Part shown: piece by piece, positions 11,091 to 13,514 of the stretch
Numbering within the stretch: position 1 is the first letter of the stretch
How the letters are laid out: each line of letters opens with the position of its first letter
The notes under the pieces: generated by a model
Told to the model about the DNA's origin: nothing
The model's input: the letters and a program-made list of their open reading frames with translations, nothing else
Databases searched by the model: none
Translations under genes and position numbers: made by a program
From: an uncultured Candidatus Rokubacteria bacterium
GTDB taxonomy: Bacteria > Methylomirabilota > Methylomirabilia > Rokubacteriales > CSP1-6
Reading direction: 5' to 3'
NCBI GenBank assembly: GCA_963771355.1
Contig: CAVYTA010000007.1
Location: 282,423-346,422, forward strand
Length of the DNA stretch: 64,000 nucleotides

Positions 11091-11575
11091 TCCTCGCCCT
11101 GCTGGTCGGGGCCCTCCTGATACTGGGGGGCTGCGCCTCGATCAACGAAGTTCCGGTCCAGCGCGCCACCATCGGGCCCCGGGCGGACTCGATCTACAAT
11201 GCCCGGTTCGTCCGCGGCTACGCGCGCCTGCCCACCTTCGACGAGACGTCCAAGTTTCGCGACGACCTCGCCAGGCGGGTGAGCGACTACTTGACCAAGC
11301 ATCCGGACATCGCCACCTCGCCCCGCGCCAGCCAGTTCCGCTTCGAGCGGCGCGTCGACCTCGGCATGAACAAGGAGGAGGTCACCCTGCTGCTCGGGGC
11401 GCCGGACGCGGTGACCGCCGATGCCGAGCGGATGAAGGCCTCGGCGGCGATCTTCTGGCCGGAGGTCTCGAAGCAGGCGAAGGAGATGTGGACGTATCCG
11501 TCCGGCTGGTCGCTCTATTTCGACGCGGACCGTCTGGTGGACATCACCGTGACGGGGAAGCCGCCGATCGAGTAG
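11087..11575 (+). CDS. BamE/SmpA-OmlA-like outer-membrane lipoprotein (start codon unresolved)
   Basis: The supplied ORF (11279..11575) begins at the first GTG. The same frame is open upstream and reads ...LILALLVGALLILGGCASINEV..., a signal peptide plus lipobox. The BamE-like motif GMNKEEVTLLLGAPD is present. No ATG/GTG/TTG precedes the lipobox; the start is provisionally CTG/ATC at about 11087-11090, overlapping the RR stop. Confidence 0.5.
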   Translation: MILALLVGALLILGGCASINEVPVQRATIGPRADSIYNARFVRGYARLPTFDETSKFRDDLARRVSDYLTKHPDIATSPRASQFRFERRVDLGMNKEEVTLLLGAPDAVTADAERMKASAAIFWPEVSKQAKEMWTYPSGWSLYFDADRLVDITVTGKPPIE

Positions 11576-13514
11576 GGTCCGCCTCCTCGAGAACGGTGTA
11601 GATCTTCACCGGCACTTCCTTGCCCTTCACCGTGACCTCGCCGAGGTAGCGCGTCCGGAAGAGGTCCTTCACCTCCATCCACGTCGCCTCGCTGATCACG
11701 ATGGGCACGTCGAAGTCCTTGGTGATGCTCTCCAGCCGCGAGCCGAGGTTGACGGTATCGCCGATGGCGGTGTACTCCAGCCGCTGCTCGGAGCCGAGCG
11801 TGCCCACCACCGCGTCCCCGGTGTGGATGCCGACCCCGCACCGGAGGGGGGCGCCGAGCCGGGGGCCGAAGCGCGCCGCCAGCCCCTCCAGCCGGCGCTG
11901 GAACTCCAGCGCGGTGCGCACGGCCTGGGCGGCGTGATCCGGCGCCTCGAAGGGCACGTTGTAGAGCGCCATGATGGCGTCGCCGATGTACTTGTCCACG
12001 GTGCCGCCGTGCGTGAACACCGCGTCCGTCATCACGGTGAGGTACTCGCGCAGGAACTCCACCACGTCCTCGGGTGCGAGCCGCTCCGACAGGGTGGTGA
12101 AGCCGCGGATGTCGGAGAAGAGCACGGTCAGACGCCGCCGGCCGGACTGCAGCGACTCGCCGGCGTCCTGGCTGCGCACGATCTCGCGCACCACCGAGGG
12201 CGAGAAGAAGCGCGAGAGCCGGCGCTTCTCGCGCTGCTCGCTGACGAAGTTCCGCACGGCGGCGCCGGTGTACGCCAGCGGCAAGGGCCAGGGGCACCGT
12301 CACCACCCCCATCCACAGATGCCCCAGGCGGAAGACGCGATGGGTCGAGGCCGAGATAGACGACACAGAGCGCCCGCGACGGCGGCGAAGGCCGGGGACG
12401 GGCCGCATCGTGCGCGCCACCAGCACCGCCACCGCTCCCGCCGCCACCGTGAGCGCGTCGACGATGCGCGGGACGGATCGGGCGGATGGGCGCGCCGGTC
12501 AGCAGGGTCTCGAGCACGTTGGCGTGGATCTCCACGCCCGGCATGTTCGTCCGCGGCGCGAAGGGCGTGGCGAAGAGATCGTGCAGCGTCGGGGTCGTCG
12601 CGCCGACGAGGACGATCTTGCCGGTGAAGGTATCGGGCGCGACCTCGCCGGCCAGGACGCGGTGGTAGGAGATGGTGAGGAACGTTCGCGGCGCGCCCGC
12701 GATAGTTGATGAGGAACTCGTCCGCCGGCAGCGGACGGGGCGGAACGAGGCCGCTCCGCGCGGCCTGCTCGAGGAGCAGCAGGCTGAAGCTCGGCAGCTC
12801 GATCTCCGGCACCTCGGTCTCCGGCACCTCGAAGTCGGGCCGCACGCGCAGGAGCAGCGACACGCGACGCACGAAGGCGTCGGCGTCGAAGTCGAAGTTG
12901 ACGAAGCCGAAGCCGCAGGGCAGGCGGTGGGCGCCGGCCGAGGCGCCGGGCCGCGGGGGCGCGGGCCGTGCGCAGTCCGCGGTGGCGTCGCGGAAGAGCT
13001 TGATGGGCGGGATTGAAGTCGAGCCTGGTGAACCCGGGCTCGACGACCTGGCCTGTAGGCGGCGGCGAGGACGACGCTCTGCGCTCGCGCGATGGCGGCG
13101 GCGAGCGCGGCGTCGTCCGCCGGATCCCCGGGCCGAGGGCTCCGCGAAGAGGAGTCGAGACCGATGGCGACGGGCCGCGCGCGGCTGACGATCTCGATGA
13201 ACTTGCGCGTGCTCGGTCCGGGGCCAGGGCCAGGCAATGTCGCGCGCGCCGTACGATCGAAGGAGTCGTCGTCGATCGCCGACGATCACGATGGGGGACG
13301 CCGGGGAGCGAGGCCCGCGCAGATCGAACTGGCTATCCAGCGCCTTGAGCTCGGCGACGTTGAAGTAGCTGAAATAGCCGAAATAGCCCAGGGGGTCCAC
13401 CCACGAGGCCAGCACGACCACCAGGCCCAGGAGGCCACCCGCGAGGAGGTGCCGCGCGGCCGGGCCGAGGAATCTCACCGGGCTCAGACTAGCACGCGGC
13501 CGGAGGCCTCCCAA
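11544..13514 (-). pseudogene. CHASE2 sensor-domain class III adenylate/guanylate cyclase, disrupted by at least five frameshifts
   Basis: Cyclase catalytic domain is intact in ORF 11544..12284 (VLFSDIRGFT, KYIGDAIMALYN, GIHTGDAVVG). CHASE2 segments are spread across three frames. Frame of 13514: IAWPWPR and FDFDADAFVRRVSLLL...FLINYRG. Frame of 13237: KFIEIVSRARPVAIGLD and TFLTISYHRVLAGE...GKIVLVGATTPTLHDLFATPF...PGVEIHANVLETLL. Frame of 12447: HLWMGVVTVPLAL, which joins the AYTGAAVRNF of the cyclase ORF. Junctions are near 13225, 13030, 12680, 12450 and 12295. Confidence 0.6.

Follow-up and report, generated by a model that had tools for sequence, protein, structure and literature searches.

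The apparent decay of a CHASE2–class III cyclase gene in a Rokubacteria assembly very probably reflects a consensus artefact over a hypervariable sensor module

The window, that is the whole 64,000-nucleotide stretch of DNA from an uncultured Candidatus Rokubacteria bacterium analysed here, encodes a protein with a CHASE2 domain and a class III cyclase domain at 11544–13478 on the minus strand, in a gene that adjoins a type IV pilus locus. The initial annotation had already read a fusion of a CHASE2 sensor with a class III cyclase from the sequence at this position, and Pfam matches as well as those of a repaired protein bear this out. The GTG start at 13478 was assigned through homology to P0001, an intact 637 aa protein from JGI soil metagenome 3300005549. 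The gene and its domains are placed as follows.

11544–13478, minus strand: gene for CHASE2 and a predicted class III adenylate cyclase, as assembled, with the stop at 11544–11546
11598–12134, minus strand: class III cyclase catalytic domain, in a single frame with no indels (PF00211, E 1.4e-24)
12440–13364 (approximate), minus strand: CHASE2 extracytoplasmic sensor domain, in three frames in the assembly (repaired aa 39–344)

The Guanylate_cyc domain is uninterrupted within ORF 11544–12284(−), and its PF00211 match (87.1 bits against a cut-off of 21.9, profile positions 8–179 of 183) places it in class III. The CHASE2 domain as assembled is found as two partial matches in two frames that both differ from the cyclase frame, one in ORF 12128–13237 (profile positions 169–231) and one in ORF 12300–13514 (positions 14–169). 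On removal of 11 inserted bases and restoration of 2, a product of ∼639 aa is obtained that gives a CHASE2 match in one stretch (PF05226, 189.2 bits against a cut-off of 26.3, profile positions 14–251 of 257) together with Guanylate_cyc. Hydropathy peaks of the repaired protein at about aa 10–30, 333–352, 356–373 and 385–401 indicate one transmembrane (TM) helix before the CHASE2 domain and three after it, which is reportedly the topology described for CHASE2 by Zhulin et al. in 2003, and this arrangement places the domain outside the cytoplasm. Alignment to CyaB (3r5g) identifies the catalytic motifs FSDIRGF, DKYIGDAIM and IGDTVNLGSRLE, with the two metal-binding Asp residues, the Lys/Asp pair for ATP, and the transition-state Asn and Arg all in place. 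The roles of these residues in class III cyclases lead us to predict that the enzyme is specific for adenylate, not guanylate. Exact-protein look-ups for the window cyclase fragment, the response regulator and the small lipoprotein gene returned no record, and neither a tRNA scan nor an Rfam scan of the window gave matches.

Frameshift-aware alignment to P0001 (90% identity over 634 aa) requires 13 frameshifts in the window, at aa 67, 74, 92, 109, 119, 144, 156, 255, 332, 355, 365, 369 and 394, so that the N-terminal 1 kb of the gene carries 13 single-base indels, 11 of them insertions and two deletions. Homology-guided alignment was relied on because the fraction of a gene lying in one stop-free frame is uninformative at 70% GC, as illustrated by the sister assembly L009 (below), which scores 0.98 despite 19 frameshifts. 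The indels are listed here in gene order, where L001 denotes the contig that encodes P0001.

13276–13281, minus strand: frameshift 1, +1 base
13255–13259, minus strand: frameshift 2, −1 base
13204–13205, minus strand: frameshift 3, +1 base, at a junction of L001-like and L009/L019-like sequence
13153–13154, minus strand: frameshift 4, −1 base, at an allele-variable first codon position (L001 G, others A)
13118–13125, minus strand: frameshift 5, +1 base; L009 also has +1 nearby
13048–13050, minus strand: frameshift 6, +1 base (CCA/CCG to CCAG)
13008–13011, minus strand: frameshift 7, +1 base (CCC/CCG to CCCG)
12692–12699, minus strand: frameshift 8, +1 base
12466–12467, minus strand: frameshift 9, +1 base (GCG/GCC to GCGC); short-read L002 is in frame
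12392–12396, minus strand: frameshift 10, +1 G; L001 and L002 are in frame
12365, minus strand: frameshift 11, +1 base (TTC/GTC to TGTC)
12352, minus strand: frameshift 12, +1 G, identical in L009; L001 and L002 are in frame
12276–12279, minus strand: frameshift 13, +1 base, at the junction checked in the initial annotation

That the gene is spread over three frames, as first proposed, is evident from the partial Pfam matches and from a GC3 frame plot, in which the coding frame hops among all three frames and GC3 is kept at 0.9–1.0 inside every in-frame segment. Of the frameshifts proposed at the outset, numbered as at least five, all five junctions match indels of this list, although the total is 13, and the junction near 12295 that had been taken for a single-base indel is the one-base insertion at 12276–12279. 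Out-of-frame events longer than 1 nt are absent, the sole longer gap being a 15-nt in-frame difference. None of the 13 indels falls in a long homopolymer; every one coincides with a site that varies among the compared alleles, where the local sequence resembles an off-by-one splice of two alleles.

Comparison with two sister assemblies of the same population, contig_8916 (L009, 1.15 Mb) and contig_6631 (L010, 361 kb), both from ENA soil assemblies, delimits the region in which these events lie.

12250–13450 (∼1.15 kb), unstranded: hypervariable island that spans the N-terminal TM helix, the CHASE2 domain and the three TM helices after it; holds 13 of the 13 indels

In both sister assemblies the flanks are gap-free and 98–100% identical to the window, and the CHASE2 allele within the island differs, with identities of 85–93% for L009 and 65–85% for L010; 26 of the 29 gap openings between the window and L009 lie inside the island. 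L009 carries 19 frameshifts of its own (aa 55, 94, 119, 126, 133, 158, 170, 205, 236, 247, 276, 323, 333, 335, 350, 353, 369, 378 and 383), and L010 at least four relative to P0012, its nearest intact allele. Only two frameshift sites are common to the window and L009, at aa 119 (∼13124) and aa 369 (12352). In the window island, blocks resembling L001/L002 are interspersed with L009-like blocks to form a mosaic, and eight short-read contigs from different samples terminate at 13257–13451, which is the island edge. No short-read contig was found that carries the window's exact CHASE2 allele across the island, the nearest intact allele being 86–88% identical.

These observations bear directly on the reading put forward in the initial annotation, in which the gene is a specifically degraded, recent pseudogene with 13 genuine frameshifts in its CHASE2 half and a clean cyclase domain, and which we now regard as very unlikely. 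The frameshifts are indeed present in the deposited sequence, and the gene calls on the two sister assemblies are likewise confined to truncated cyclase fragments (326 and 278 aa). However, the three assemblies, with flanks that are 98–100% identical, have almost wholly different sets of frameshifts, such that decay would need independent bursts of 4–19 indels per 1 kb inside a near-clonal population. Bacterial pseudogenes are said to show a deletional bias and mixed indel sizes (attributed to Mira, Ochman and Moran, 2001), whereas the events here are of one base only, with insertions and deletions at 11:2 and large deletions absent, and they coincide with an island of allelic diversity. Neither reproducible disruptions, nor an excess of substitutions, nor a deletion-biased spectrum of mixed lengths is seen, and the high GC3 within the in-frame segments also speaks against decay.

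Substitution patterns were compared with those of intact relatives. Divergence from L001 is 6.4% in the island, 7.1% in the cyclase domain and ∼10% in the flanks, and hence is not above that of the flanks. The cyclase domain has no indels relative to L001, and its substitutions are distributed as 5/5/41 over the three codon positions. Island substitutions relative to L001 are even across codon positions (23/16/25), a lack of third-position bias that is ambiguous, being also compatible with relaxed constraint and with a pseudogene. At the protein level, the repaired product and P0001 are 88.1% identical in CHASE2 plus TM helices and 96.0% identical over the cyclase domain; the resulting divergence ratio of 3 lies near the bottom of the range of intact homologue pairs (mostly about 1.5 to 39). 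Two such intact pairs illustrate the trend, P0034/P0037 with 82.6% identity in the CHASE2 module versus 99.6% in the cyclase domain, and P0001/P0004 with 65.7% versus 96.5%. As the island shows, the CHASE2 sensor module turns over far faster than the catalytic domain in this cyclase family. Comparison with orthologues, proposed at the outset as a check, finds P0001, P0012 and P0020, which among short-read relatives are nearest to each allele class, to be intact single ORFs; all 21 checked loci of other assemblies (21/21) are also stop-free in one frame, a metric that is uninformative at 70% GC. A protein search with only the CHASE2 module brought up no closer intact allele than P0001 (86%) or P0020 (93%, over 36% of the query), and screening JGI metagenome contigs with the repaired protein likewise yielded no closer allele, the output being swamped by generic cyclase peptide patterns.

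The two sites held in common by the window and L009 raise the possibility of a mixed case, in which one or two frameshifts are real and inherited and inactivate the gene in this lineage, with consensus errors accounting for all others. Two candidate events, an additional G at 12352 and a +1 near 13124, stand on both frameshift lists as aa 369 and aa 119. Around the 12352 insertion, 23 nt agree exactly between the window and L009, two assemblies that derive from separate samples. Yet the extra G is missing from short-read L002 and from L001, whose sequence at this place is otherwise almost the same, and the codons after ∼13124 differ between the window and L009, so that these two events need not match. 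Where the same two alleles co-occur, the consensus would moreover be garbled at one and the same spot in two assemblies, and the downstream residues are strongly conserved in the shifted frame. On balance we consider the mixed case improbable.

One-base insertions also occur outside the cyclase gene, at the following sites.

20669, plus strand: extra G in GCCCGGCCGGCC that splits a pilO/pilP-like gene of the pilus locus (327 aa in other assemblies)
56344–56350, plus strand: two extra bases, at 56344 and 56350, that break the frame of the PolA intein; in short-read L159 and L160 a single frame stays open

The pilus locus, initially described as otherwise intact, therefore includes a split gene, and elsewhere in the window the PolA intein is broken. 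The pilO/pilP-like gene is in frame in L149, L150 and short-read L155, and further private insertions are found in L149 (one, at window position 17046), L150 (six, 19720–22585) and L158 (one, 56493). Each insertion at these sites is private to one assembly, and the short-read contigs are mutually free of such indels, in disagreement with decay specific to the cyclase gene. Density nevertheless differs strongly, with 13 indels in ∼1.0 kb of island versus ∼3 in ∼20 kb of the window elsewhere that is covered by short reads. One-base indels that are private to an assembly and missing from the short-read ones, with errors clustered at polymorphic sequence, are thus found here, as expected of an assembly artefact. 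A GC3 hidden-Markov scan of the rest of the window detected no further frame hop besides the flagged 20669, the scan having labelled the region of the PolA break (56333–56852) as non-coding.

A further explanation is that the substitutions and one-base indels are made in vivo by local diversification, through retroelement-type mutagenesis or phase variation. Such a process would suit variation that is so strongly concentrated in the extracytoplasmic module and ends abruptly at its boundaries, but the indels lie outside simple repeats of the phase-variation type, the allele classes correspond to intact, old and diverged genes in other assemblies, and the assemblies that show the indels also have comparable one-base insertions in unrelated genes. 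No template repeat of the island was found elsewhere in the window (best match 58 nt at 78%), and about 40 window proteins scanned contained no reverse transcriptase, transposase or integrase domain. The island was accordingly rejected as the target of a diversity-generating retroelement, with no template repeat in the window and no reverse transcriptase domain among the proteins scanned, and in vivo diversification in general has a negligible likelihood.

The direct observations, namely the location and spectrum of the indels, their non-reproducibility between assemblies and the intact short-read relatives, point with high probability to an artefact in the consensus of a sensor module that truly is hypervariable within a Methylomirabilota (Rokubacteria) population; the evidence thus favours the locally error-rich assembly stretch that the initial annotation had named as its alternative. 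Soil strains of this population would co-exist with 98–100% identity in the flanking genes and the cyclase domain, and would differ in TM–CHASE2–TM alleles of about 60–90% amino-acid identity. In a strain-collapsing, probably long-read, metagenome assembly, reads of different alleles may have been merged into a mosaic consensus, which at closely spaced allele substitutions would have kept or dropped one base, giving 11 spurious insertions and two spurious deletions. The living bacteria most likely carry an intact gene, which probably encodes a normal, functional membrane adenylate cyclase. The long-read source and the exact route by which the consensus was garbled are inferred, the former from the size (0.36–1.15 Mb), the ‘contig_N’ names and the ENA soil origin of the sister contigs.

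Several properties of long-read metagenome assembly are consistent with such an artefact. Flye merges strains of ∼98.65% identity into consensus contigs (PMC8302730), indels in Nanopore consensus sequences lead to frameshifted gene calls (PMC9262707), and a large set of soil MAGs has been built by Nanopore-only metaFlye with one round of Medaka (PMC12313526). Records of the latter set use ‘contig_N’ names, as do the sister contigs, a likeness that may link the two. As in Nanopore consensus error and metaFlye strain collapse, private one-base indels fragment the gene calls here, are missing from short-read assemblies and are concentrated at strain differences. Classic Nanopore errors are homopolymer deletions, in contrast to the events found here, which are mostly insertions at allele-variable sites outside long homopolymers; such insertion-rich errors at allele-variable sites suggest haplotype mixing, not base-calling alone. 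Strain-collapsed long-read MAGs would, by the same route, inflate pseudogene counts and accounts of ‘gene decay’ at the most strain-variable loci, with clustered, insertion-biased one-base frameshifts within a divergence island as a recognisable signature of the artefact.

With regard to known relatives, CHASE2 class III adenylate cyclases of Methylomirabilota/Rokubacteria, such as P0001 and P0005 (‘adenylate/guanylate cyclase domain-containing protein [Methylomirabilota bacterium]’), have the same domain order as the window protein. P0001 is 86–90% identical to the repaired protein from end to end, and its contig has the same neighbours as the window (cyclase, small lipoprotein gene, response regulator); the window copy as assembled differs from it in the 13 one-base indels that scatter its coding sequence over three frames. 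An additional PilZ domain (PF07238) is present at the N terminus of many paralogues and absent from the window copy. The closest solved structure to the catalytic domain is that of Pseudomonas aeruginosa CyaB (3r5g, E 2.9e-35), which shares the conserved FSDIRGFT, DK(Y/F)(I/V)GD and NL(G/A)SRLE motifs. The membrane sensor of CyaB is MASE2, not CHASE2. CyaB-derived cAMP governs type IV pilus genes via Vfr, a form of control that parallels, by analogy, the pilus-locus context of the window gene; nothing of the Vfr/CRP or Chp type was identified among the genes of the window.

At least three to four allele classes, old and of about 60–90% amino-acid identity, sit on flanks that are 98–100% identical. 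We tentatively suggest, at somewhat less than even confidence, that the TM–CHASE2–TM module is a swappable, hypervariable cassette in soil Methylomirabilota, exchanged by recombination and maintained by selection. Alleles would be exchanged by homologous recombination, even across populations, and kept through frequency-dependent or niche-specific selection, for example on a strain-specific ligand or on a surface interaction related to phages or pili. As we are aware of no known CHASE2 ligand, the variation in the sensor module could point to the signals that the domain detects. Rodriguez-Valera and colleagues have reportedly described hypervariable ‘metagenomic islands’ that affect surface-exposed proteins in populations that are clonal elsewhere. 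The window island differs from these in being ∼1.15 kb long and confined to the sensor module of a single gene, and not a glycosylation or pilin cluster, but shares with them the sharp boundaries, the 98–100% identical flanks, the breaks of short-read contigs at its edge and the several old allele classes of an exposed module.

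Three overlapping minus-strand ORFs span 11544–13514 of the window (G+C ~70%) and divide the Pfam matches among them as follows.

11544–12284, minus strand: ORF with a complete Guanylate_cyc domain
12300–13514, minus strand: ORF matching CHASE2 profile positions 14–169
12128–13237, minus strand: ORF matching CHASE2 profile positions 169–231

In the third-position G+C plot, the coding signal switches among all three frames from ~13310 to 12325 and keeps a single frame from 12325 to 11544, in agreement with the initial annotation of CHASE2 segments and a complete class III cyclase domain distributed over three frames. 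The roughly stitched protein has ~1,500 homologues, of which all those listed are CHASE2 plus cyclase proteins and those named are mostly Methylomirabilota (Rokubacteria). Among the more distant Methylomirabilota homologues (P0017–P0120), most carry an extra N-terminal PilZ domain (PF07238), an architecture that would link cAMP synthesis with c-di-GMP binding. The best homologue, P0001 (637 aa), is encoded on a 3-kb Illumina-era JGI soil contig (L001) that has the gene order cyclase, small lipoprotein gene, response regulator in common with the window. Our own protein-to-DNA alignment of P0001 with the window, with frameshifts permitted, gives 90% identity end to end at 13 frameshifts (11 single extra bases, two single missing bases), all within 13281–12276; the last 730 nt of the gene are free of them. 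The disruption first described as at least five frameshifts is real in the file, with the count raised to 13. Nucleotide alignment with L001 identifies each shift as a one-base indel, none in a long homopolymer. The repaired protein gives a single clean CHASE2 match (189 bits, profile 14–251 of 257) plus the cyclase domain, and its hydropathy indicates one TM helix ahead of CHASE2 and three behind.

The frameshifts are present in the file but almost certainly absent from the cells, and we consider an assembly artefact very likely. In bacterial pseudogenes, decay leaves substitutions far in excess of indels, with deletions favoured and indels of varied length. Against L001, the hypervariable island (~12250–13450; 995 nt aligned) exhibits 64 substitutions (6.4%) together with 13 indels of one base and a single in-frame difference of 15 nt. 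The cyclase part, at 51 substitutions over 723 nt (7.1%), and the flanks, at ~10% divergence, are both free of indels. Insertions outnumber deletions 11:2, and all events are of one base. The even spread of island substitutions over codon positions (23/16/25), taken alone, could point to relaxed constraint. The CHASE2+TM module is, however, fast-evolving even in intact genes: in intact homologue pairs it diverges at ~1.5 to 39 times the rate of the cyclase domain (82.6% versus 99.6% for P0034/P0037; 65.7% versus 96.5% for P0001/P0004), an indirect control as such pairs give divergence ratios and not codon-position spread. The repaired window against P0001 (88.1% versus 96.0%, ratio 3) falls at the low end of intact pairs. 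Relatives at 21 other loci, the orthologue comparison proposed initially, are uninterrupted.

Exact-protein look-ups place the organism in many public assemblies, including contig_8916 (L009, 1.15 Mb) and contig_6631 (L010, 361 kb), both from ENA and neither identical to the window. The flanks align to both at 98–100% identity with zero gaps, whereas within ~12250–13450, where practically every gap falls, identity drops to 85–93% (L009) and 65–85% (L010). The L009 copy has 19 frameshifts versus P0001, at positions almost entirely unlike those of the window. L010 belongs to a different allele class, shares 90.6% identity with the intact P0012 and has at least four frameshifts. Thus, three assemblies of a near-clonal population have different frameshift sets in one shared island, which, with the 11:2 one-base spectrum and no substitution excess, argues against the recent pseudogene initially proposed. 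Eight contigs assembled from short reads of different samples terminate at 13257–13451, the upstream edge of the island, which is de Bruijn graph behaviour at a population-level bubble.

The island is a mosaic, for the most part L001/L002-like with some L009-like blocks. L002 is a low-coverage (1.6x) short-read contig whose positions 1–118 encode an aldo/keto-reductase-like peptide fused straight to the mid-CHASE2 gene; these were treated as a chimeric join and only positions 119 onward were used. At all 13 indel sites the aligned alleles differ, and the window string resembles two alleles joined one base off register, or both variants of a polymorphic base retained adjacently (CCA/CCG to CCAG, GCG/GCC to GCGC, TTC/GTC to TGTC). 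The assembler very probably merged differing sensor alleles here, and the frameshifts mark the merge site. Two shifts (~13124 and 12352) also occur in L009, which accounts for part of the remaining doubt; such recurrence would follow from co-occurrence of one allele pair in the two samples, but leaves a low probability of one or two shifts being real. Flye merges strains ~98.65% identical into consensus contigs (PMC8302730), and gene calling on Nanopore consensus sequences suffers frameshift errors from indels (PMC9262707). Nanopore-only metaFlye assemblies with one Medaka round underlie a large Danish soil MAG set (PMC12313526); MAG records of this set bear 'contig_N' names, as do the sister contigs of the window.

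Other genes provide independent proof that these assemblies make one-base indel errors, in favour of the locally error-rich assembly stretch offered initially as the alternative. Across the pilus genes (8 kb), a single extra G in the window, at 20669 within GCCCGGCCGGCC, is the only indel between it and the short-read contigs. The extra G splits a pilO/pilP-like gene (19959–20919) that two other assemblies (L149, L150) carry as one 327-aa ORF and that short-read L155, which lacks the base, has in frame, so that the locus is not otherwise intact as first described. The 890-aa ORF at 19959–22631 is a resulting spurious read-through into the secretin gene (start near 20951). In L149, an extra C (window position 17046) splits a 702-aa gene that is whole in the window and five short-read contigs, and L150 has six private one-base insertions, splitting a 211-aa gene and the secretin. 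DNA polymerase I (PolA, 53878–57758) contains an intein of ~433 codons at 55684–56984 (Cys1 after ...ATGRLS, ending ...VVHN ahead of SALPNLQNIP; LAGLIDADG blocks LVGYAMADGHI and FLRGYFEGDGS). In the window two extra bases (56344/56350) break its frame; the break in L158 is a different one, and short-read L159 and L160 keep a single frame throughout. Frameshifting indels number ~3 outside the island in ~20 kb of short-read-covered window versus 13 in the 1-kb island.

The gene itself is an ordinary CHASE2 cyclase, predicted to make cAMP, with an unusually variable extracytoplasmic module. One allele class (L019/P0004) carries a tandem acidic/lysine repeat (KSKDDADEQ, ~3 copies) after the LFAE motif of CHASE2, a further sign of fast sensor-surface remodelling. 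L019 (DASRWT010000041.1), P0055 and P0067 are labelled archaeal (Candidatus Nitrosocosmicus, Nitrosotalea, Bathyarchaeota) with a clearly Methylomirabilota-like locus, mis-binning of contigs in public MAGs being the probable cause. There is no sign of a diversity-generating retroelement, as the island has no repeat elsewhere in the window and no reverse transcriptase or mobile-element domain was found among ~40 window proteins scanned. At 14750–15000 and 15250–15500, immediately downstream of a PEP-CTERM gene and where the minor-pilin-like genes begin, two small clusters of 5–8 substitutions versus L009 and L010 interrupt otherwise identical sequence; strains may vary in additional micro-islands there.

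The pilus context annotated initially is correct, with the following encoded within ~17 kb of the cyclase.

Pilin-like protein, N_methyl protein, PilX_N protein
PilM, pilO/pilP-like protein, secretin
MshEN/T2SSE ATPase, T2SSF platform protein
Histidine kinase and sigma-54 response regulator
Single-domain response regulator, adjoining the cyclase

Three plus-strand genes around the cyclase are placed as follows.

5996–6514, plus strand: pilin-like gene, N-terminal methylation motif GFTLVELLIV
11081–11575, plus strand: small lipoprotein gene, overlapping the 3′ end of the cyclase gene by ~30 nt
14156–14851, plus strand: secreted 231-aa protein, C-terminal PEP-CTERM sorting signal (PF07589)

The pilin-like gene at 5996–6514 lies in an 840-nt stretch called non-coding by the GC3 model and has the atypical codon composition common in major pilins. 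The lipoprotein signal peptide, LILALLVGALLILGGC, has no in-frame ATG, GTG or TTG upstream, implying either a rare start codon or a start within the end of the response-regulator gene; gene callers truncate the lipoprotein to 94–151 aa in other assemblies. The PEP-CTERM gene sits between the cyclase and minor-pilin genes in a lower-G+C stretch. In Pseudomonas aeruginosa, CyaB and Vfr link cAMP to the pilus, and a functional link here would be only an analogy. The catalytic domain retains the FSDIRGF, DKYIGD and NLGSRLE motifs, which we take, from what is known of class III cyclases, to predict an adenylate cyclase, and its nearest match among solved structures is P. aeruginosa CyaB (PDB 3r5g, E 3e-35).
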